A DNA stretch of 64,000 bases, taken from the NCBI GenBank assembly GCA_025457915.1, contig JALOTL010000014.1, positions 5,156-69,155 on the forward strand, written 5' to 3'. This stretch comes from Spirochaetota bacterium (GTDB lineage: Bacteria; Spirochaetota; UBA4802; UBA5550). Shown here piece by piece: positions 319 through 9,533 of the stretch. A model generated the notes under the pieces. That model was not told where the DNA came from. It saw nothing but the letters and a program-made list of their open reading frames with translations, and made no database searches. The translations under genes were made by a program, and so were the position numbers. Each line of letters begins with the position of its first letter. Position 1 is the first letter of the stretch.

Positions 319-645
319 ATGGAAATCACCGTTACGAAGAAAGCAAACGCCGTAATCCTGAAGGTCGACGGACGCATGGACGCGTCCACCAGCCCGGAGT
401 TCGACCGTGAGTGCGGCGCGCTCATAGACGCGGGCGAGAGGTCGCTGGTCGTGGATTTCGGCGGCCTTGAATACATAAGCAGCGCCGGGCTGCGCTCCCT
501 TCTCTCGGCGGCGAAAAAATTGAAGGCCATGCAGGGACAGATCAGGCTCTGCCGCATGGGCGGTCTCGTGCAGGAGGTGTTCGCCCTGTCCGGTTTCGCC
601 TCCATGTTCAGCATCTATCCCGGCGTGGAGGAAGCGCTTGCCTGA
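319..645 (+). CDS. STAS-domain anti-sigma-factor antagonist (SpoIIAA/RsbV-like)
   Basis: The 108-aa product has an ...VDFGGLEYISSAGLRSLL... STAS signature with the phosphorylatable Ser region. An AAAGGAGG RBS precedes the ATG at 319. Confidence 0.8.
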   Translation: MEITVTKKANAVILKVDGRMDASTSPEFDRECGALIDAGERSLVVDFGGLEYISSAGLRSLLSAAKKLKAMQGQIRLCRMGGLVQEVFALSGFASMFSIYPGVEEALA

Positions 646-1108
646 ACCAGCGAGACATTCCGCGGGTCCCCTGAGGCTCCCGGCCAGGCGGGAATCCCTG
701 GCCCTGGTCAGGGAATATGTCGGGAAGAACCTCGAGGCGTGCGGCCTGCCAGGGGACCGGCGGCTCAGGTTGGAGCTGGCGGTTGAGGAGATCGCGGCCA
801 ATATCATAACCTACGCCTATTCCCCCGCCGGAAGCGGGGACCTGGAATGCGGATTCGCCGCCGACGGGAAAACGGCCGAGGTTTCACTGACCGACTGGGG
901 CGCGGCGTTCAACCCCCTTGAAAAAGAGGACCCGGACCTTGCGCCTGAACTCGACCGCAGGGAGCCGGGCGGCCTCGGCATATATCTCGCAAGAAACCTG
1001 GCCGGTTCATGCAGCTACAGGCGCGATGGAGGCAGAAACATCCTTACCATCTCGATGCCGCTCCAGCCTGAAGCCGGCAGCGCGCGTTCAAAGGAGGAAG
1101 GGGCATGA
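638..1108 (+). CDS. Anti-sigma regulatory factor, Ser/Thr kinase with GHKL ATPase fold (RsbW/SpoIIAB-like)
   Basis: The ...ELAVEEIAANIITYAY...EPGGLGIYLARNLAG... HATPase_c motifs are present. It overlaps the STAS stop by 8 nt, and the exact start is uncertain. Confidence 0.7.
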   Translation: MPEPARHSAGPLRLPARRESLALVREYVGKNLEACGLPGDRRLRLELAVEEIAANIITYAYSPAGSGDLECGFAADGKTAEVSLTDWGAAFNPLEKEDPDLAPELDRREPGGLGIYLARNLAGSCSYRRDGGRNILTISMPLQPEAGSARSKEEGA

Positions 1109-2613
1109 GCGACTTTCATTTCAGGCTGGTCAGCGGCACGCACCTCTCCGGCCGCGAGGTCGAGGAGGCCTGCCTCGTTCTCAGCGCGGGCTACTCCGCG
1201 TGGCAGAAAAACCCGAAAAACCTCCATCCCGCGGTCACCGACACCTCGCCGGAAGCGTACAGGAAGGTGATGTGCAGCGACAACCACGAGGCAGTGCTGT
1301 ACTACGAGGCCGGCACCCTCCGGGGCGTATTCCTGCACGCCCTCTCGCCCGAATACGACCGCTACCCCCTCAGGAAAATCTCCTACCTGGCCGTCCAGCC
1401 GGCCGAGAAGGGATACGAGCCGCTGAAACGGATCTTCTCGCGGTACGCGGATTTCGTGAGGTCGCAGGGCGAGGACATGGTAATCACGAGCGACCTCGAC
1501 CAGGCAACCCTCAACGGCCTGCTTGAGCACGCCGGCTTCCACGAGGTCGTGGACAGGAACGAGACGTTCTTCATCCTGTCCCACCTGCTGCAGAAAAAAA
1601 TATTCTCCTTCCAGAAGGTGAACGGGGATTTCGTCATAGACCAGATCATCAAGCTCGAAGGCAAGGCGGTGAGGCGCGACAAGAAGCTCCTGAAGCTCCA
1701 GACCACGGGATACGACTTCTATAGTCTTTACAGGGACCAGCAGTCAAAGAGGCTGCGCCGCTCGATCTCGCCCGCCAGGATGGACCTGCTCAGGGCGGCT
1801 TTCGCGCGGGCCGCGGAGGGGGTGCATTTCATCAGCGCCTTCGACGGCACGATCACGCTGGACCGCGAGGACGGGGGAGGATTCAATCCCACGCCCCTGC
1901 TCATCGGCGAAAACGCGGACGGCCTGCGGGGCGAGATCATCGACGAAAAGGCGGGCCTGATATATCTCCTTCCGGGCACCGACGGGGAGCTGGCGAGGAT
2001 CGCTTCGCGCATAAGGTTCCGGCCGGGATTCTTCGATTTCCTTTTCTTCTGCCTCAAGGCCCTCGGTTCGGTCTACGTCATCTCCGGGGCGCTTCCCGGA
2101 CTGGTGCAAGCCGCGCTCGAGCGGCCCCTCGCGCCCGGGCTCCCGCTCTGCTACAGGGACCTGATCGAGAGCGTCATAGCGCCGGACATCACCATGCTCG
2201 GCGGGACGACGAAGAGGCTTTCCGACGGTTCGCTTCGGACCGCGTACAGGGCGGGCGGCGGTTTCGCGGACCTCTCCGGGGGCGAATATTCGGCGCGCAA
2301 GGACCTCATGGTCGAGTCCGTGCTTTCGCTGAAGGGCGACACAGCAGCTCCGGTTGTATATCTCTGCAGCGACCTGAGGGACGCGCCCGCCCTGGCCAGG
2401 CTGTACGATGAGTCGCGCAGGCGGTCATTGCCGGTGATTGTTTTCGATTTTGGAAAAGAGGCCGCGCTCTGGGTCAACAGGGAGGCGGCGGGCATGGACC
2501 CGGAGGCCAATCCCTATTTCAGCGTTGTAGGCATACGCGATTTCTACCAGATCCCGGTCATGCTCGAGGAGGCGGGACTGACCCTCGGACTGGACGAGGA
2601 CTTCCTGGCATGA
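1105..2613 (+). CDS. Hypothetical 502-aa protein inside the partner-switching operon, with a possible GNAT-like N-terminal region
   Basis: The ORF is long with codon usage like its neighbours. It has an ATGA overlap with the upstream kinase stop and another with the downstream phosphatase start. The N-terminal region (YLAVQPAEKGYEPL...HAGFHEV) loosely resembles an acetyltransferase fold. Confidence 0.5.
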   Translation: MSDFHFRLVSGTHLSGREVEEACLVLSAGYSAWQKNPKNLHPAVTDTSPEAYRKVMCSDNHEAVLYYEAGTLRGVFLHALSPEYDRYPLRKISYLAVQPAEKGYEPLKRIFSRYADFVRSQGEDMVITSDLDQATLNGLLEHAGFHEVVDRNETFFILSHLLQKKIFSFQKVNGDFVIDQIIKLEGKAVRRDKKLLKLQTTGYDFYSLYRDQQSKRLRRSISPARMDLLRAAFARAAEGVHFISAFDGTITLDREDGGGFNPTPLLIGENADGLRGEIIDEKAGLIYLLPGTDGELARIASRIRFRPGFFDFLFFCLKALGSVYVISGALPGLVQAALERPLAPGLPLCYRDLIESVIAPDITMLGGTTKRLSDGSLRTAYRAGGGFADLSGGEYSARKDLMVESVLSLKGDTAAPVVYLCSDLRDAPALARLYDESRRRSLPVIVFDFGKEAALWVNREAAGMDPEANPYFSVVGIRDFYQIPVMLEEAGLTLGLDEDFLA

Positions 2614-4601
2614 AGACACCCGAAACACTGAAGCGCGCGATTACGGCCGCGGCCTCCCTCTGGAAGGGCCGCCTTTCGGTGAAGCTGACCGCCTCGGTGC
2701 TCCTCAGCACCGGGTTCATTTTCTGCTCCGTCATCCTGTATTATTACTATTCCTCCAAGGCCATCGTGCTCGACGACGCCCAGACGAACGCCAGGAACCT
2801 CGCGCAGTCCGTCATCAACAGGATGATGATCCTCTCCAACTCCATCGAGACGCTGACGGCGCACACGGCGCGCTCGCTCGAGGTCTATTCCTTCAGGCAG
2901 GACCGCATACGGCAGGAACTCGGCCAGTTCGTCGCGAACAACAGGGACATCTACGGATCGGCGGTCGCCTTCGAGCCCTGGTCCCACGCGCCGGACAGGA
3001 AATATTACGCCCCGTACTGCCACAGGCGCGGCGAGTCCGTCGAGTTCACCGTGCTCGGCGGGCCGGAATACGATTACTTCTCGATGGGCTGGTACTCGAG
3101 ACCGAAGGAGTCCGGGAAGGCGATGTGGAGCGAGCCATACTTCGACAGGGGCGGAGGCAACATCATCATGACCACCTACTCCGTCCCCTTCTACAGCGGG
3201 ACCGGGCCCGGCAGGAAGTTCCGCGGCGTCGTGACCGCGGACGTGTCCATAGAATGGATACACGGGTTCGTCTCCACCCTGAAGTTCTACGACACCGGCT
3301 ACGCGTTCCTTGTGTCCGGAGAAGGGACGGTGGTTTCGCACCCGAACGCCTCGTACATTTTTTCCATGAACATCAACGAATTCACGCGCAGGACCGGGGA
3401 CGGCAGGATGATCGAGCTGTGCCGCAAAATAACGAAAGGGGACGCCGGGTACGGTTTCGCGCGGGATTTCTTCACCAAAAAGGAATCCTTCATTTATTAT
3501 GCCCCAATAATAGCCTCCGGCGCATCCATGGCCTCGATGGTCATATTCGTCCCGGAAGAGGAGCTGTTCGGAGACATACGCAAGCTAGCGCGCAACGTCT
3601 TCGCGATCGGGATAGTCGGGGCCGCGGCCCTCGTGCTGGTGATATCGGCCATCTCGCGGAGGATCACCCGCCCCATCCACTCCCTGGCGGGGATCACTCG
3701 GGAAATTGCCCGCGGCAACCTGGACATCGAGGTGCCCTGCCAGGACTCAGGCGACGAGATCGGCACCCTCGCCCTCTCCTTCACCTCCATGAAGACGGCG
3801 CTCAGAGAATACATCGCGGACCTCAGGGAAACCACCGCGGCCAAGGAAAGGATCGAGAGCGAGCTCAGCCTCGCCCGCGCGATCCAGCAGAGCTTCCTGC
3901 CCCGCGGGCCGCTTCCGGCTGGACCGGTATGCGGCTGCGACGCCTTCGGGGCCATAGAAATGGCGAGGCAGGTGGGCGGAGACCTTTACGATTTCTTCAT
4001 GCTGGACGGGGAACGGCTTTTCTTCCTGATCGGGGACGTTTCCGACAAGGGAATGGCCGCGGCCCTGTTCATGGCCGTCACCAGGACCCTGTTCCGCGCG
4101 GCGGCTTCGCCGCTGATGGAGCCCTCTGCGATTCTGGAACGCGTCAACCCGGAGCTCTGCCGGGACAACGAGTCATCGATGTTCGTGACCCTCTTCTGCG
4201 CCGTGTACCACACCCGAACGGGCGAGCTGAGGTATTCCAACGCGGGGCACAACCCCCCGCTGATCCTGAAGACGGACCGCACGGTCGTCCGCCTGGCGTC
4301 CCCCTCGGGGATCGCGCTGGGAGCGAAGGACGGCGCGGGCTACGAAACCGGCAGCGCGGCCCTCGGCCCGGGAGACGTCTGCCTGGCCTACACGGACGGC
4401 ATCACGGAAGCGATGGACCCGTCCGGGGCCTTCTACACGGAACCACGCCTGGCCGGGACGCTGGCTTCAGCGGAGGATTTTTCCCCGAGGGGACTGGTGG
4501 AACGCGTCCTCGGGTCCGTGCGGGACTTCGCCGGTGGTGCGCCGCAGTCTGACGATATGACTCTTTTCTGCCTGAGGAACACCGGCAGGGGTAACCCGTA
4601 G
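2610..4601 (+). CDS. Sensor PP2C-family serine phosphatase (RsbU/SpoIIE-like) with periplasmic Cache-like domain, transmembrane segments and HAMP
   Basis: It has an N-terminal TM segment and a roughly 300-aa periplasmic domain, then a second TM followed by a HAMP region (...GNLDIEVPCQDSGDEIGTLALSF...). The C-terminal PP2C motifs are GGDLYDF...FLIGDVSDKGMAAALFM...YTDGITEA. Confidence 0.8.
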   Translation: MKTPETLKRAITAAASLWKGRLSVKLTASVLLSTGFIFCSVILYYYYSSKAIVLDDAQTNARNLAQSVINRMMILSNSIETLTAHTARSLEVYSFRQDRIRQELGQFVANNRDIYGSAVAFEPWSHAPDRKYYAPYCHRRGESVEFTVLGGPEYDYFSMGWYSRPKESGKAMWSEPYFDRGGGNIIMTTYSVPFYSGTGPGRKFRGVVTADVSIEWIHGFVSTLKFYDTGYAFLVSGEGTVVSHPNASYIFSMNINEFTRRTGDGRMIELCRKITKGDAGYGFARDFFTKKESFIYYAPIIASGASMASMVIFVPEEELFGDIRKLARNVFAIGIVGAAALVLVISAISRRITRPIHSLAGITREIARGNLDIEVPCQDSGDEIGTLALSFTSMKTALREYIADLRETTAAKERIESELSLARAIQQSFLPRGPLPAGPVCGCDAFGAIEMARQVGGDLYDFFMLDGERLFFLIGDVSDKGMAAALFMAVTRTLFRAAASPLMEPSAILERVNPELCRDNESSMFVTLFCAVYHTRTGELRYSNAGHNPPLILKTDRTVVRLASPSGIALGAKDGAGYETGSAALGPGDVCLAYTDGITEAMDPSGAFYTEPRLAGTLASAEDFSPRGLVERVLGSVRDFAGGAPQSDDMTLFCLRNTGRGNP

Positions 4602-4723
4602 CCGGGCAGGAAACCGGTGAAATCCTCCCCCATTCAACCAATAAATGTCAAAAAAAATCACCGGGATGTCACAAATCAGCATGATTTCAGTATAAGAAGC
4701 ATAAGGAAAGACGGGTAAGCGCC

Positions 4724-5605
4724 ATGTACAATCCATTCGCGGAAAAAGACGGCCGCGGCGCAAGCGACGCCGATTATATCGCCGGAGCGCTGAAGGGCGA
4801 CCCGGAAGCGCTGGAGGGCCTCGTGTTGAGGCACCAGGCATGGATATTCAACATCGCGGTCAACATGACCAACGACGTGGAGGCCTCCCAGGACATAACA
4901 CAGGAGGTCCTCATAAAGGTCATAACGAACCTGTCTTCATACGATCCGGGTAAGGCGGCTTTCAGGACCTGGCTCTACCGCATCGCGGCGAACCACATAC
5001 TCGACATGAAGCGCAGCCGGAAAGAAAGAACCATGTCGGATCTTTACAGGGTGAAAAATTTCAACGAATACATGGCGTCCATACCGGACACCCGCAAATC
5101 CTCCAGGCCCGGCTACCCGGTGATCGCGGAGGAGACCAAAAAAGCCTGCCTCCAGTGCGTACTGCTCTGCCTCGGCAGGAGGGACCGCCTCGTTTTCGTT
5201 CTGGGCGCAATGTTCGGTGCCGGAGACGGAACCGGGAGCGAGATCTGCGGAATCTCTCGCGTAAATTACCGCAAGATCCTTTCGCGCTCGAGGCAGAGGG
5301 TGAGGGACTTTTTCATGAAAAACTGCGGGCTCGTCAGCGACGATAATCCCTGCAGGTGCGGAGAAAGAACGGCCCCGCTCGCCGCGCTCGACATGATCAG
5401 CGAGCCGGGCGTGAAGGCCATGCGCGAGTCCGGACAGACAATAGGCGATACGATAGGCAGGTCGGTGGAAGAGCTGGAGGACTCGTACCACGAGTTCACC
5501 GCGCTTTTCAGGAGCCAGCCGTTTTACCGGGGGCCGGACATGACGGCCTGGCTCAGGGACCTGCTCGGGAGGAGCGACATCCGGGCCCTCCTGGGCACGG
5601 AATGA
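4724..5605 (+). CDS. ECF-type RNA polymerase sigma-70 family factor with a C-terminal extension containing a CRCG motif
   Basis: Sigma region 2 (...RHQAWIFNIAVNMTNDVEASQDITQEVLIKV...FRTWLYRIAANHILD...) and a region 4 HTH (GISRVNYRKILSRSRQRVRDF) are present. An extra C-terminal domain of about 90 aa carries NPCRCGERT. Confidence 0.75.
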   Translation: MYNPFAEKDGRGASDADYIAGALKGDPEALEGLVLRHQAWIFNIAVNMTNDVEASQDITQEVLIKVITNLSSYDPGKAAFRTWLYRIAANHILDMKRSRKERTMSDLYRVKNFNEYMASIPDTRKSSRPGYPVIAEETKKACLQCVLLCLGRRDRLVFVLGAMFGAGDGTGSEICGISRVNYRKILSRSRQRVRDFFMKNCGLVSDDNPCRCGERTAPLAALDMISEPGVKAMRESGQTIGDTIGRSVEELEDSYHEFTALFRSQPFYRGPDMTAWLRDLLGRSDIRALLGTE

Positions 5606-5623
5606 AAACAGAGGAGAACAAGC

Positions 5624-6703
5624 ATGGACATGTACGAAAGGTTCAGGGAAATGCTCGACGCACACCCGTCAGGCGCGCCGGCCAGCGCGGCCTTCACGGA
5701 GATTTTAAAGATATTATTCACCGGGGATGAAATCGAGGCCGCCATCCATCTGGGGTTCATCCCGAAGACAGCGGAGCAGGTCGCGCTCGCGTCCGGCCTC
5801 GAGGTCAGGGAAGCCGAGCGGAGGCTCGACTCCATGGCGGGAAGGCTGGTGATCAATTCGCGCGTGAAGGACGGCGCCACGCTCTACTCCATCCTGCCCA
5901 CGGTCCCGGGACTCTTCGAACTGCAGTTCATGAACGGCGGCGGGACGCCGGCGCACGAGAGGCTGGGCGGGCTCTGGACCGAGTACAACGGCGAGGCCAT
6001 GATCAGGTCCCTGGCGGGCGAGCCGACCCCGCAGATGAGGGTGGTGCCGGTGCAGAAGTCCCTTCTTCCCGAAAACCGCATCCATACACATGACGAAATC
6101 GAACAGATGATCCGCGGATCGGATTACATCGCGGTCGCCCACTGCGCCTGCCGCGTCAGCAAACGCTCGTGCGGTTCGCCGACCGAGGTGTGCCTGATCT
6201 TCGGCGCGCTCGCGAAGGCCGTCGTCAGCCGGGGCAGCGCCAGGCTGGTCTCCGCCGACGGGGCCATGGACGTGCTCCGAACGGCCGAGGAGGCCGGGCT
6301 GGTCCACACAAGCAACAACAGCGCGGAAAAGCCGGTCATAGTCTGCAGCTGCTGCAGGTGCTGCTGCCATTTCCTGCGGGGGCTCACGGAGCACGGTGAG
6401 CGCAATGCCGTTTCGCCGAGCGCCTTCGCCGCGAAAGTGAGGCCGGACGACTGCACCGCCTGCGGGATCTGCAGGGACAGGCGCTGCCCGGTGAAGGCCA
6501 TCGAAGAGCGGGACGGCGCGTATGCCGCGGACCCTGAAAAATGCATCGGCTGCGGACTGTGCGCGTCCGGATGCCCGGCTTCGGCGATAGACATGGTACC
6601 CAGGGAAAAAATCCCCGAAGTCCCCGCCACCCAGCAGGAGATGATACTCACAATGCTGAAGGAGAAGGGGAAGCTGGAGAGGTTCATGAAGCTTTTAAGG
6701 TGA
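5624..6703 (+). CDS. Cys-rich iron-sulfur protein with C-terminal 2x[4Fe-4S] ferredoxin motifs; N-terminal domain unknown
   Basis: The C-terminal CTACGICRDRRCP and CIGCGLCASGCP are CxxCxxCxxxCP motifs. Further Cys clusters HCACRVSKRSCG and CSCCRCCCHF are present. The gene sits 19 bp downstream of the ECF sigma gene. Confidence 0.6.
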   Translation: MDMYERFREMLDAHPSGAPASAAFTEILKILFTGDEIEAAIHLGFIPKTAEQVALASGLEVREAERRLDSMAGRLVINSRVKDGATLYSILPTVPGLFELQFMNGGGTPAHERLGGLWTEYNGEAMIRSLAGEPTPQMRVVPVQKSLLPENRIHTHDEIEQMIRGSDYIAVAHCACRVSKRSCGSPTEVCLIFGALAKAVVSRGSARLVSADGAMDVLRTAEEAGLVHTSNNSAEKPVIVCSCCRCCCHFLRGLTEHGERNAVSPSAFAAKVRPDDCTACGICRDRRCPVKAIEERDGAYAADPEKCIGCGLCASGCPASAIDMVPREKIPEVPATQQEMILTMLKEKGKLERFMKLLR

Positions 6704-6797
6704 GGGGATTGTCGAAGAAATACGGCGATTGTGTCTTTGAAAATGTGATCGTAAGCCCGGGCTGCTCTATGAAAAAATACAGAAGAATCCGGGATTA

Positions 6798-6922
6798 GCG
6801 GAGGATTATTCCCCGGGGCGCATGGTGGAACGCGTCCCGGGGTCCGTGCGGGTGGAGCGCCGCAGTCGGACGACATGACGCTTTTCTGCCTGAGGAACAC
6901 CGGCGGGGGGGGGGAACCCACA
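6798..6922 (+). pseudogene. Degenerate duplicate of the last ~130 bp of the PP2C phosphatase gene (coordinates 4470-4601), with a G10 homopolymer
   Basis: By-eye alignment of 6798-6922 against 4470-4601 gives roughly 85% identity with one ~10-bp deletion. The copy does not reside in an intact ORF in that frame. A G10 run lies at 6905-6914. Confidence 0.6.
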
Positions 6923-7081
6923 GGCCGGCTCCGGCGTTTTTCACAGTCAGCATTAGAGGAATAATACCCGGTTGAATCTCTGCCAATCCCCTGACCGCTT
7001 ATGGCGCAGGAAATAAATAATGTCTTAAGAAAAAAATACTTGATGACGGACCGCTATTTCCGCATATTTATACAAAACAAG

Positions 7082-7258
7082 GAGAAAATTTATGGCGGCT
7101 TTGCGTGAAAAATACATCGTCGACGGCAAGGGAAAAAAAAGTGAAGTCATACTTCCAATCGAGAAATACAATGAACTGCTTGAAGACATCCACGACCTGG
7201 GCATCATCGCTGAAAGAAAAAACGATAAAACCCTGTCATTCGACGAGTTAAAAAAAAG
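7082..7258 (+). CDS. Small antitoxin (58 aa) of a type II toxin-antitoxin pair
   Basis: The ATG at 7082 is preceded by AAGGAGAAAA. The product MAALREKYIVDGKGKKSEVILPIEKYNELLEDIHDLGIIAERKNDKTLSFDELKKRIK is a typical short antitoxin partner. It lies immediately upstream of the RelE/ParE-like gene. Confidence 0.55.
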
Positions 7259-7272
7259 GATCAAATAGCCGC

Positions 7273-7527
7273 TTGTACGATATATGCTTCAAACAACAGG
7301 TCAAAAAAGATTTTAAGCATATTGAACGCCAATATGCGGCCGCCATAGTCGATAAAATCAAAACTCTTGAAAAAAACCCATTTCCTAAAAATTCGCGAAA
7401 ACTGACCGGAACCGAGATGTCATACCGTCTCAGGGTGGGTGATTACAGGATAATATACCAGGTTGACGTCAGACAGAAACTCATAACCATTTTTTACGTC
7501 CGTCACAGAAAAGACGCTTATAAATAA
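7273..7527 (+). CDS. RelE/ParE-family type II toxin (mRNA interferase-like)
   Basis: The motifs ...KQQVKKDFKHI...NPFPKNSRKLTGTEMSYRLRVGDYRIIYQVD...ITIFYVRHRKDAY match the RelE/ParE signature. A TTG start is likely. Confidence 0.8.
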   Translation: MYDICFKQQVKKDFKHIERQYAAAIVDKIKTLEKNPFPKNSRKLTGTEMSYRLRVGDYRIIYQVDVRQKLITIFYVRHRKDAYK

Positions 7528-7933
7528 TTGCAATGATTTACGCTTTGAATTTCCTGCCATAATCCGCCGGATATTTTCTAGCTCCCCTGGAATAGAATCG
7601 CCGCGCGCGCTTCGCGCTGTCCGGCCCGCCGCTTTTTTCTTCTGTAAAACTCTCCCGTTTCATGCCATCCTGCCGCATTGTTTTATCGCTTTGTGCCAGG
7701 GAATTTTTCCCTGTATAAACGGTGCTGTTTTCGGAAAGCCGTCCGCCAATTCGTCCACATTTTATGGAGTTAATCTGGTTTTAATCTTTATTATTGACAA
7801 GCGGTACCGGCAATGATATATTTAATATACGCCTGACGGGCAAGCCATTGTAAATCGCACGTTTTGTATTATTGCGGAACAGTTAAATGCATTTAAGGGC
7901 CACCCGCAAACATTCATTGATCTGGTTCTGGCC

Positions 7934-9286
7934 ATGGAAAGGGAAACGATAGAGAAAAGCGCCATCCGGAAAAAGTACTTCATCAAATCCCAGGTCATTG
8001 TCATGTTCGGCTATGCCATGACCCAGGCCGGGACCCTCGTCGCCAGGCAGCTCGGTTTCTCTTCGATTTCCTACGGTGAAATTCTATTCGTCACCCTCTC
8101 CACAATGGGATTTACCCTGCTCGTTACAGTCGTCGTGAAGCCGAAAAAAATCATAAGCAATGCATTCATCCAGACGGTCGTAAAGATACAATTCGTCTTC
8201 TGGCTTATGATGTACATGTTCTGGATATATTTTCTCCAGGAGGCCAGGATACTGGGTCTGTTTTTCGCCTTCATGCCTCTCATATTTCTCGCGACGAATT
8301 CGAATTTCATCCAATCGCTGATTATTTCAATAGCCGTTGCGGTTATCCAGCTTGTCGCGTCATATTACGCCATCAATTTCGCCCACCAGGGCGGGTCCTT
8401 CAAAGATGTCGTGTTCTATACATCATGGTTTTTTCCTTCGGCGTTATATATCGCCTATGTTGCCGGACTCTTTCACAAAAAGAGAAAAGAAGTCAGGCAG
8501 TCGAAACAGGATGCCGAACTTGCGCGCGACGCCCTCTGGGGAGAGATGGAACTCGCGAAAAAAATACAGACCATACTGCTTCCCAAAAGACCCGACATAT
8601 TGGGATATGAAATTGCAAGCTACATGAGTCCGGCCAATGAGGTTGGAGGCGATTATTATGATATAATCGACTTCAACGGCTATCACTGGATCATCATCGG
8701 AGACGTTTCGGGTCATGGCGTTCCCGCCGGACTGGTCATGATGATGACGCAGACCGCAATTCATAACTCCCTGCAGGACGATCCGAGGATATCTCCGTCG
8801 GACCTCCTGATAAAAATCAATAAAACCATTACGGCCAACATCAAACTGATGGACGAAAGCACATATATGACCATTACGGTCTTTGCCGTAGTCGAAGACA
8901 ATCATCTGGTCTACTCGGGTCTTCACCAGGATATTTTCATTTACAGGGAAAGGGATGACAGGGTGGAGACGCTGCAGACGGAAGGCATGTGGATCGGATT
9001 GATCGATGACATAACTCCCATGGTAAACGACAAAAAGTTCCACCTGGACAGGGGCGACTGCATGCTTCTCTATACCGACGGCGTGACGGAATCATGGGAA
9101 GCCGGTCATGGCAATGATGCCGACAAAAGAGCGCCCCGTTATTTCGGCAAAGACAGGTTGAAGGCAATATTAAACGACGGCGGCAAAAGCAGCCCTGAAA
9201 TACTCAAACGAAAAATCCTCGACGAGCTCAATCACTACAGGAACAACGACGACGTTACGTTTTTAATCATCAAAAGGGTCAACTGA
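7934..9286 (+). CDS. Membrane-anchored PP2C/SpoIIE-family serine phosphatase (N-terminal multi-TM domain)
   Basis: The N-terminal ~190 aa form a hydrophobic multi-TM region. They are followed by the PP2C motifs ...EVGGDYYDIIDF...IIGDVSGHGVPAGLVMMM...YTDGVTE. Confidence 0.8.
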   Translation: MERETIEKSAIRKKYFIKSQVIVMFGYAMTQAGTLVARQLGFSSISYGEILFVTLSTMGFTLLVTVVVKPKKIISNAFIQTVVKIQFVFWLMMYMFWIYFLQEARILGLFFAFMPLIFLATNSNFIQSLIISIAVAVIQLVASYYAINFAHQGGSFKDVVFYTSWFFPSALYIAYVAGLFHKKRKEVRQSKQDAELARDALWGEMELAKKIQTILLPKRPDILGYEIASYMSPANEVGGDYYDIIDFNGYHWIIIGDVSGHGVPAGLVMMMTQTAIHNSLQDDPRISPSDLLIKINKTITANIKLMDESTYMTITVFAVVEDNHLVYSGLHQDIFIYRERDDRVETLQTEGMWIGLIDDITPMVNDKKFHLDRGDCMLLYTDGVTESWEAGHGNDADKRAPRYFGKDRLKAILNDGGKSSPEILKRKILDELNHYRNNDDVTFLIIKRVN

Positions 9287-9533
9287 ACCCTGTTTTTGAA
9301 TTTCATTTCTTTATGGATCCCTATCATGGATCAAACAGAGGTGGATTAAAAAGTTAAATTAAGCGGCCGGGGTATACTGGATGGAGCGTTCATGCCGCCC
9401 ATCCATCTCTTCACAAAGTTGTAATCCATGCCGGGACTGCCGCCGCTGACGCACTTTCCACCTCCCGGGGAACGAAACAGTCACTGGCCGGACGTTTTGG
9501 TGCGGCGATGCCGGGGATGACAATACGCCTCGC

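Follow-up and report, generated by a model that had tools for sequence, protein, structure and literature searches.

An ECF sigma factor with a conserved cysteine-containing C-terminal extension and its cysteine-rich iron-sulfur neighbor in a Spirochaetota genome

A stretch of 64,000 nucleotides from the genome of a Spirochaetota bacterium (contig JALOTL010000014.1; hereafter the window) carries a gene for a sigma factor of the extracytoplasmic function (ECF) type, followed immediately by a gene for a cysteine-rich iron-sulfur (Fe-S) protein. What holds this sigma factor in check, and what is the Fe-S protein for? An earlier note on the same DNA had suggested that the Fe-S protein serves as a redox-active regulatory partner in place of an anti-sigma factor; as an alternative it offered self-inhibition through the C-terminal extension of the sigma factor. 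Our analysis favors the alternative. We think it probable, on balance, that this is a one-component sigma factor resembling those of the ECF41 group, gated by its own extension, with the Fe-S protein as co-transcribed cargo. The Fe-S protein is most likely an effector whose expression the sigma factor controls, not an anti-sigma factor. Autoregulation, the chemistry of sensing and the nature of the signal are points that we infer.

The locus is most likely a two-gene operon encoding an ECF sigma factor that has no separate anti-sigma factor. The two open reading frames (ORFs) lie exactly where the earlier note had placed them (Table 1), the Fe-S gene starting 18 nucleotides past the stop codon of the sigma gene. 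A ribosome-binding site can be read within this gap, and a scan of its forward strand found no promoter-like or terminator-like site. A weak terminator-like hairpin just beyond the Fe-S gene may mark the end of the operon; it comes from a consensus scan in which terminator-like sites are no more numerous in this region than in shuffled sequence. The order of the two genes is retained in a relative that is about 90% identical (L171). As the note had stated, no anti-sigma gene was detected in the window: the only ORF at the downstream position of the operon is the Fe-S gene, which matches Fer4-type families only.

The core of the sigma factor matches Pfam Sigma70_r2 (65 bits) and passes the NCBIfam model for the ECF superfamily (TIGR02937; 64.8 bits against a cut-off of 42.9). 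With these family models passed and sigma2 and sigma4 as its only sigma domains, the protein belongs to the ECF sigma factors (group 4). None of the specific NCBIfam equivalog models passes, all scoring far below their cut-offs for this protein. It is 100% identical to MCU0848424.1, a protein of a Spirochaetota metagenome-assembled genome. Its family is abundant, with more than 2000 database matches from Spirochaetota, Desulfobacterota and soil metagenomes; the top 120 cover 81-100% of the query, mostly 99%, at 44-66% identity. Over its full length, extension included, the family is conserved in 110 clusters at 43-66% identity. The sigma factor and the Fe-S protein each belong to a large and strongly conserved family, and the features described here are not due to chance.

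The extension and the promoter of the sigma factor

Alignment to ECF sigma factors of known structure, in a profile search against PDB sequences, stops near residue 197 and leaves about 93 further residues. The earlier note had described an extension of about 90 residues containing NPCRCGERT, and this agrees well with what we find; the string begins at residue 208. Three cysteines fall within 12 residues at the start of the extension and are followed by 81 residues without any. The extension is conserved from end to end, with a distal motif E(D)SY..F..L...QPF..GPDM..WL, and it is acidic, having an isoelectric point (pI) of 4.7 as against 9.4 for the sigma core. It has no Pfam match even at E ≤ 1.

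Does this domain occur outside the sigma family? We took residues 199-293 by themselves as the query, and a search of 1.84 billion representative proteins returned 47 matches. The long ones align at about positions 200-290 of proteins of about 290-300 residues; the short ones that were inspected all include part of sigma4 and are fragments of the sigma family. Two long matches are to repeat-rich proteins, and the one of these that was inspected (P0256) was judged spurious. Among the inspected matches of this search, no independent domain outside the sigma family was found. The literature retrieved and the NCBIfam models hold no specific description of this type of extension, which appears to be undescribed. 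Regulation by a C-terminal extension is itself a known design. The earlier note had expected such an arrangement to be unusual, but it is not very unusual. Only one other way of regulating ECF sigma factors is more common than a C-terminal extension, which is found in 19 groups (PMC7826278).

Four cysteines deserve attention. An alignment of 110 homologues shows no variation at C210 and C212, and conservation of at least 90% at C142 and C201. C142 lies inside a predicted helix (residues 131-148). It has two cysteines close by, C145 and C149, which together with it read CxxCxxxC; among 32 homologues C142 alone is invariant in this region. We propose that C142, in sigma4, and the C201-x8-C210-x-C212 motif could make up a Cys4 site that tethers an acidic helical domain of about 80 residues to the DNA- and core-binding surfaces of the sigma factor. 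Altered metal occupancy or an altered thiol redox state would then release the extension, by analogy with ECF41, CorE and OrbS.

An AlphaFold2 model of the sigma factor has a predicted local distance difference test score (pLDDT) of 77.9 and a predicted template modeling score (pTM) of 0.81. Residues 201 and 210 are marked in it as beta-bridge residues, and the extension is predicted to be largely helical. The model lends weak support to an on-board switch.

The second feature of the family is a promoter motif. In the close clade the sigma genes are preceded by the consensus TGTCACA-N16-GTATAAG, in which GTCACA and TAT are invariant across the 12 loci aligned. Nine of these loci carry the strict pattern TGTCACA-N15-17-GTAT, and the other three have variants of it. 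The -10 element in the window ends 27 nucleotides before the sigma start codon, and the strict motif matches once in the 64 kb, compared with 0.03 matches expected. Judging by this conservation, the sigma factor most likely drives transcription of its own operon, both genes included, from this promoter. At the other sigma loci no second copy of the promoter was found ahead of the downstream genes, so these genes are presumably co-transcribed with the sigma gene.

A search for further members of the regulon in the window, where the strict motif occurs only this once, gave one match with a single mismatch (at about 26600 on the reverse strand); it lies antisense within an ORF and is probably due to chance. 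At a related locus (L168), about 1.6 kb without called genes (3385-5000) separate the sigma gene from a divergent gene for an Rrf2 regulator. A match within one mismatch of the strict motif stands in this stretch at 3576 (+), a long way ahead of the start of the sigma gene.

Table 1. Positions of the features discussed; numbers refer to the window unless a locus is named.
Feature	Position	Strand	Remarks
Candidate autoregulatory promoter	4667-4696	+	-35 TGTCACA 4667-4673, 16-nucleotide spacer, -10 GTATAAG 4690-4696
ECF sigma gene	4724-5605	+	293 amino acids; sigma2 about 33-100, sigma4 about 131-200
Cys142 codon	5147-5149	+	First helix of sigma4; candidate fourth ligand of the Cys4 site
C201-x8-C210-x-C212 motif, CGLVSDDNPCRC	5324-5359	+	Directly after the last sigma4 helix
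C-terminal extension, residues 201-293	5324-5602	+	Acidic, predicted largely helical, family-specific
GAGGAG ribosome-binding site of the Fe-S gene	5611-5616	+	Within the 18-nucleotide intergenic gap; read from sequence
Fe-S protein gene	5624-6703	+	359 amino acids
Weak terminator-like hairpin, possible operon end	6707-6740	+	Just 3' of the Fe-S stop codon; consensus scan only
Direct repeat, copy 1	4469-4591	+	3' end of the Cache-HAMP-SpoIIE phosphatase gene (2610-4601)
Direct repeat, copy 2	6797-6909	+	Orphan SpoIIE-type 3'-end fragment, no ORF, downstream of the Fe-S gene
STAS anti-anti-sigma-like gene	319-645		
RsbW-like HATPase_c_2 kinase gene	638-1108		
Gene for 502-amino-acid protein	1105-2613		No Pfam match
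Cache-HAMP-SpoIIE phosphatase gene	2610-4601		
ParE-family toxin gene	7273-7527		In low-GC island
Second membrane-bound SpoIIE phosphatase gene	7934-9286		In low-GC island
Fe-S/TetR/HypA/CobW locus	L172 4001-8188		
DUF3795 genes	L081 5555-5995; L083 1759-2199; L086 5944-6384; L163 5904-6344; L165 6042-6482; L166 5948-6385; L168 5910-6362		

The Fe-S protein and the gene slot behind the sigma factor

Three parts make up the Fe-S protein: a winged helix at the N-terminus (residues about 1-92), a central region of alpha/beta type, and a 2x[4Fe-4S] ferredoxin domain at the C-terminus (about 270-325). The earlier note had credited it with at least 20 cysteines; the exact count is 18, and all 18 are invariant in 121 homologues. 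Ten of them fall in the central region (residues 174, 176, 183, 190, 241, 243, 244 and 246-248), in the patterns CxC-x6-C-x6-C and CxCCxCCC, and this region also contains the conserved motif GLVHTSNNS. The string CSCCRCCCHF, which the note had picked out, is present from residue 241. It had also described two CxxCxxCxxxCP motifs: the second is canonical (307-318), and the first is longer by one residue, CxxCxxCxxxxCP (277-289). With two motifs of this type in a Fer4 fold the domain belongs to the 2x[4Fe-4S] ferredoxins, and Pfam recognizes it as such (Fer4, 35.9 bits against a cut-off of 21.1; Fer4_10, 31.2 against 25.5).

The rest of the protein is less familiar. Residues 1-269 have no Pfam or PDB match beyond the generic winged-helix fold, and structural comparison of the whole protein with the PDB gave matches to single domains only. 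The AlphaFold2 model is confident (pLDDT 92.7, pTM 0.90). The first 95 residues, which contain the winged helix, are acidic (pI 5.1), and this argues against DNA binding. Homologues carry the name RnfB in JGI annotation, an identity that we reject: the rnfB model TIGR01944 gives 31.4 bits, short of its cut-off of 68.7, and matches residues 266-332 only, the ferredoxin region. The pipeline names 'RnfB' and 'PreA' reflect the ferredoxin domain and nothing else. Family members have a near-constant length of about 360 residues and are about 50% identical across phyla; in the GTDB species representatives no fewer than 471 loci encode one, Asgard and Bathyarchaeia archaea included. Two or three paralogues of the family share a locus, over up to about 13 kb, in L001, L010, L012, L026, L034, L042 and L060.

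Could this protein be the regulator of the sigma factor? In that role it could take the place of a classical anti-sigma factor, acting as a soluble redox sensor that is based on clusters and either sequesters the sigma factor or activates it. Its gene stands, with an 18-nucleotide gap, at the usual position of an anti-sigma gene, and a winged-helix domain combined with up to 18 cysteine ligands is a plausible architecture for a sensor. We nevertheless consider the idea unlikely. Linkage can be read from either family.

From the side of the Fe-S family there is no linkage. We retrieved 80 of the GTDB loci and searched within 6 kb of the Fe-S genes for sigma-70 homologues; even at E ≤ 10, none of the 80 has one. 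The earlier note had said that a metabolic enzyme family unlinked to ECF sigma genes elsewhere would refute it, and as regards linkage this largely applies at the level of the family. Some of these loci are archaeal, and Archaea have no sigma factors. Upstream of unlinked Fe-S genes, the sigma-type motif was found at 0 of 76 loci. The immediate neighbors are heterogeneous: among 132 of them, TetR occurs 5 times, OYE 3 times and radical SAM 3 times. In one genome the sigma gene (L168/L169) is followed by a DUF3795 gene, and about 80 kb separate it from the Fe-S gene (L172), which is followed by genes for TetR, HypA and CobW in an apparent TetR operon. A sigma70-like promoter overlapped by a palindrome can be read from the printed sequence upstream of this Fe-S gene. 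The family thus appears to be under different dedicated regulators, a sigma factor or TetR, in different genomes, as befits a regulated gene and not a regulator.

Two further observations concern the L172 locus. A gene for a 371-residue Fer4-domain protein lies nearby, with a further HypA gene beside it. In view of this link to Ni/Zn metallochaperones, what the ten central cysteines bind could be something other than plain [4Fe-4S] clusters.

From the side of the sigma factor the picture is a mixed one. We surveyed 80 metagenomic loci together with individual close homologues. Where a downstream ORF could be read, at 63 loci, the identity of the gene that follows the sigma gene varies. In the close clade of anaerobes the first gene encodes a DUF3795 protein at seven loci (L081, L083, L086, L163, L165, L166 and L168). 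This protein is well conserved and has 145-150 residues and about 20 cysteines; its linkage to the sigma factor is no less frequent than that of the Fe-S protein. No DUF3795 gene has been overlooked in the window, where tblastn found none (best E-value 0.36), and a literature search on DUF3795 gave nothing relevant. The Fe-S gene comes first at L082, at L084/L170 and in the window itself. At L081, at L165 and on the P0002 contig it stands second, behind DUF3795; in L087-L089 the first gene encodes a rubrerythrin. In the distant soil clade SnoaL/DUF4440 is the commonest, and the other options include SDR, AhpC-type peroxiredoxin, EamA transporter, zinc alcohol dehydrogenase (Zn-ADH), F420/NADP oxidoreductase and flavodoxin-like reductase. 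Among the cluster representatives and singletons scanned, no anti-sigma family was found next to a sigma homologue.

We propose that the Fe-S gene is one of several alternatives for a variable slot, which other members of the sigma family fill with DUF3795, rubrerythrin, peroxiredoxin, SDR, a quinone-reductase-like protein or SnoaL. This set of cargo (rubrerythrin, peroxiredoxin, quinone-reductase-like and SDR proteins, and cysteine-rich metalloproteins) suggests that what these anaerobes respond to is stress of an oxidative, redox or electrophile kind. One protein of 444 residues (P0261) joins a sigma factor and its extension to a fused C-terminal DUF4440/SnoaL domain. In the manner of a Rosetta stone, this hints at possible joint action of the sigma factor and some of the downstream genes.

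How often, then, do the two genes meet? The co-occurrence that the earlier note asked for is absent when the search starts from the Fe-S family; it is present in part when the search starts from the sigma factor, with an Fe-S gene in about 6 of the 13 close sigma lineages that have enough downstream sequence to judge. The sigma factors of L163 (63% identical to that of the window), L166 (52%) and L168 (48%) have no Fe-S gene within 5 kb. The Fe-S protein beside the L170/L084 sigma factor is only 30% identical to that of the window, the two sigma factors being 52% identical. That two diverged subclades of Fe-S protein fill the same slot supports functional co-regulation, although it does not separate a target from a partner.

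These data also bear on a plainer explanation, that the pairing means nothing and an unrelated metabolic Fe-S gene with regulation of its own happens to adjoin the sigma gene. Most members of the Fe-S family are indeed unlinked to any sigma gene and have heterogeneous neighbors. Against this stand the short gap between the genes, which holds a ribosome-binding site and no promoter- or terminator-like site on the forward strand, the retention of the order in L171, and adjacency in several lineages and in both Fe-S subclades. We therefore hold accident to be quite improbable. The linkage fits a gene that has been recruited repeatedly and is probably co-regulated.

The same data argue against the Fe-S protein as regulator. 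Some close sigma factors have no Fe-S gene nearby, and members of the Fe-S family at the 80 loci have no sigma gene nearby. The protein contains no anti-sigma domain or fold (class I anti-sigma domain, ZAS, RskA, FecR or RsbW-type) and does not co-occur obligatorily with a sigma factor. On these grounds, on the two-way pattern of family linkage and on the apparent TetR-type regulation elsewhere, it is most likely not an anti-sigma factor. Regulation is, moreover, already accounted for by the conserved extension of the sigma factor, and the corresponding idea was rejected experimentally for the neighbors of ECF41 sigma factors (PMC3426412). The partner role proposed in the earlier note is accordingly not supported. 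Its alternative, self-inhibition, is the better-supported reading, on indirect evidence: the extension is conserved, acidic and family-specific, and the -35 element and the logic of the locus match those of ECF41.

Several points weigh against a self-gated sigma factor with the Fe-S protein as cargo. The extension is modeled by AlphaFold2 with no more than moderate confidence (pLDDT about 58-84), and the compact arrangement of sigma2 and sigma4 may be an artefact of training that would appear for any ECF sigma factor. Recurrence of the Fe-S linkage in two subclades that are 30% identical would also be expected of a functional partner. As the P0261 fusion shows, a kind of gene that occurs behind the sigma gene can be incorporated into the sigma factor itself. 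SnoaL is common downstream in the soil clade, and SnoaL domains are regulatory in ECF41 and ECF56, so some downstream genes could act in signaling.

A more speculative possibility, to which we give little credence, is that an Fe-S cluster, or else a redox-labile metal, sits in the conserved Cys4 site. These proteins would then be a widespread family of one-component sigma factors that sense oxygen or redox state in anaerobes, and their cysteine-rich partners, DUF3795 and the 18-cysteine protein, would feed back on them. If so, the two partners might exchange clusters or metal with the sigma factor or report their status, making up a soluble metal-cluster module without a classical anti-sigma factor.

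Neighboring genes in the window

Four genes that overlap end to end finish 122 nucleotides upstream of the sigma gene (the STAS, RsbW-like, 502-residue and Cache-HAMP-SpoIIE entries of Table 1). They look like a partner-switching module with an extra component, the 502-residue protein, and with no obvious cognate sigma factor. RsbW- and SpoIIAB-type proteins are established anti-sigma factors, and the module might control the ECF sigma factor with the RsbW-like protein as its anti-sigma factor. We find this very unlikely indeed. At the homologous loci for which genes are listed, no STAS, HATPase_c_2 or SpoIIE gene lies beside the sigma gene, and on this ground we reject the module as regulator; the sigma gene also has a conserved promoter of its own. 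Known RsbW-type factors target group-3 sigma factors, not ECF sigma factors. Finally, a repeat of the 3' end of the phosphatase gene brackets the sigma/Fe-S pair, which suggests that the module came to lie next to the pair through local rearrangement.

The repeat is direct and about 120 nucleotides long, and a repeat search gave 88-90% identity between its copies. Copy 2 is absent from the otherwise about 90%-identical L171. Either a rearrangement specific to the strain or loss of a second phosphatase gene may lie behind this.

Downstream of the pair lies an island of low GC content (about 7000-9300; 0.42-0.48 compared with about 0.6 around it) with genes for a ParE-family toxin and a second SpoIIE phosphatase. 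A short ORF upstream of the ParE-family gene is a probable antitoxin gene; a RelB-like gene occupies that position in L171.

Comparison with known ECF systems

The sigma factor shares much with the ECF41 group (Ecf41Bli, Ecf41Rsp and SigJ of M. tuberculosis): a length of about 290 residues, an extension of about 100 residues, no anti-sigma gene, and an adjacent, often co-transcribed and variable gene of oxidoreductase type. The signature promoter of ECF41 is TGTCACA-N16-CGTC, and its -35 element has been stated to be specific to that group (Wecke et al., PMC3426412). The -35 element and the 16-nucleotide spacer in the window are identical to these. In ECF41 the adjacent gene is the sole target of the sigma factor, and experiments that weighed three hypotheses showed the neighboring oxidoreductase to be a target and not an anti-sigma factor, with the extension as regulator (PMC3426412).

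The differences are equally plain. The -10 element in the window is GTAT(AAG), whereas that of ECF41 is CGTC. The ECF41 motif WLPEP (PMC3426412) is missing both from the linker in the window, MASIPDTRKSSRPGYPVIAEE, and from the family consensus. The extension here has no SnoaL match and is predicted to be largely helical, unlike that of SigJ, which is described as SnoaL_2-type (PMC5766207). The conserved C...C-x8-CxC motif does not occur in ECF41. The SigJ-type NCBIfam model gives the window's sigma factor 50 bits against a cut-off of 240. The missing WLPEP and the lack of a SnoaL-type extension rule out membership in ECF41.

CorE-like sigma factors (ECF44, now within ECF238; CorE, CorE2 and SigZ) also lack an anti-sigma factor and have conserved cysteines upstream of sigma4.2 and directly after sigma4. 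The cysteines around sigma4 have been proposed to bind metal jointly and so to switch the conformation of the protein (PMC4937300, PMC8999054). Their CxC, however, lies between sigma2 and sigma4.2, whereas ours (C210 and C212) follows sigma4, and they end in a cysteine-rich domain of about 20-38 residues with about 6 cysteines, compared with three cysteines in the extension described here (PMC4937300). The NCBIfam SigZ models reach 43-46 bits where 169-212 would be required, their partial matches extending to residue 207 of the window's sigma factor. With no CxC in the linker and no short terminal cysteine-rich domain, it is not a member of the CorE-like group.

OrbS of Burkholderia cenocepacia is likewise an ECF sigma factor with a C-terminal cysteine-rich extension, which is reported to sense the signal directly (PMC9023288). 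It is an iron-starvation sigma factor of another clade. As for the Fe-S protein, it differs from RnfB, HdrA, PorD and the polyferredoxins, which have clostridial-type 2x[4Fe-4S] ferredoxin domains, in its first 269 residues, which are unmatched. That it is apparently placed under dedicated local regulators, a sigma factor here and TetR elsewhere, points to a stress-inducible redox role.

Taken as a family, these sigma factors appear to combine the design and the -35 element of ECF41 with a cysteine motif and an acidic helical domain in place of SnoaL. Their predicted promoter, found once per locus, would make them candidates for orthogonal genetic switches. Comparison with ECF41 would reveal how different fused domains can gate a sigma factor without the help of an anti-sigma factor.

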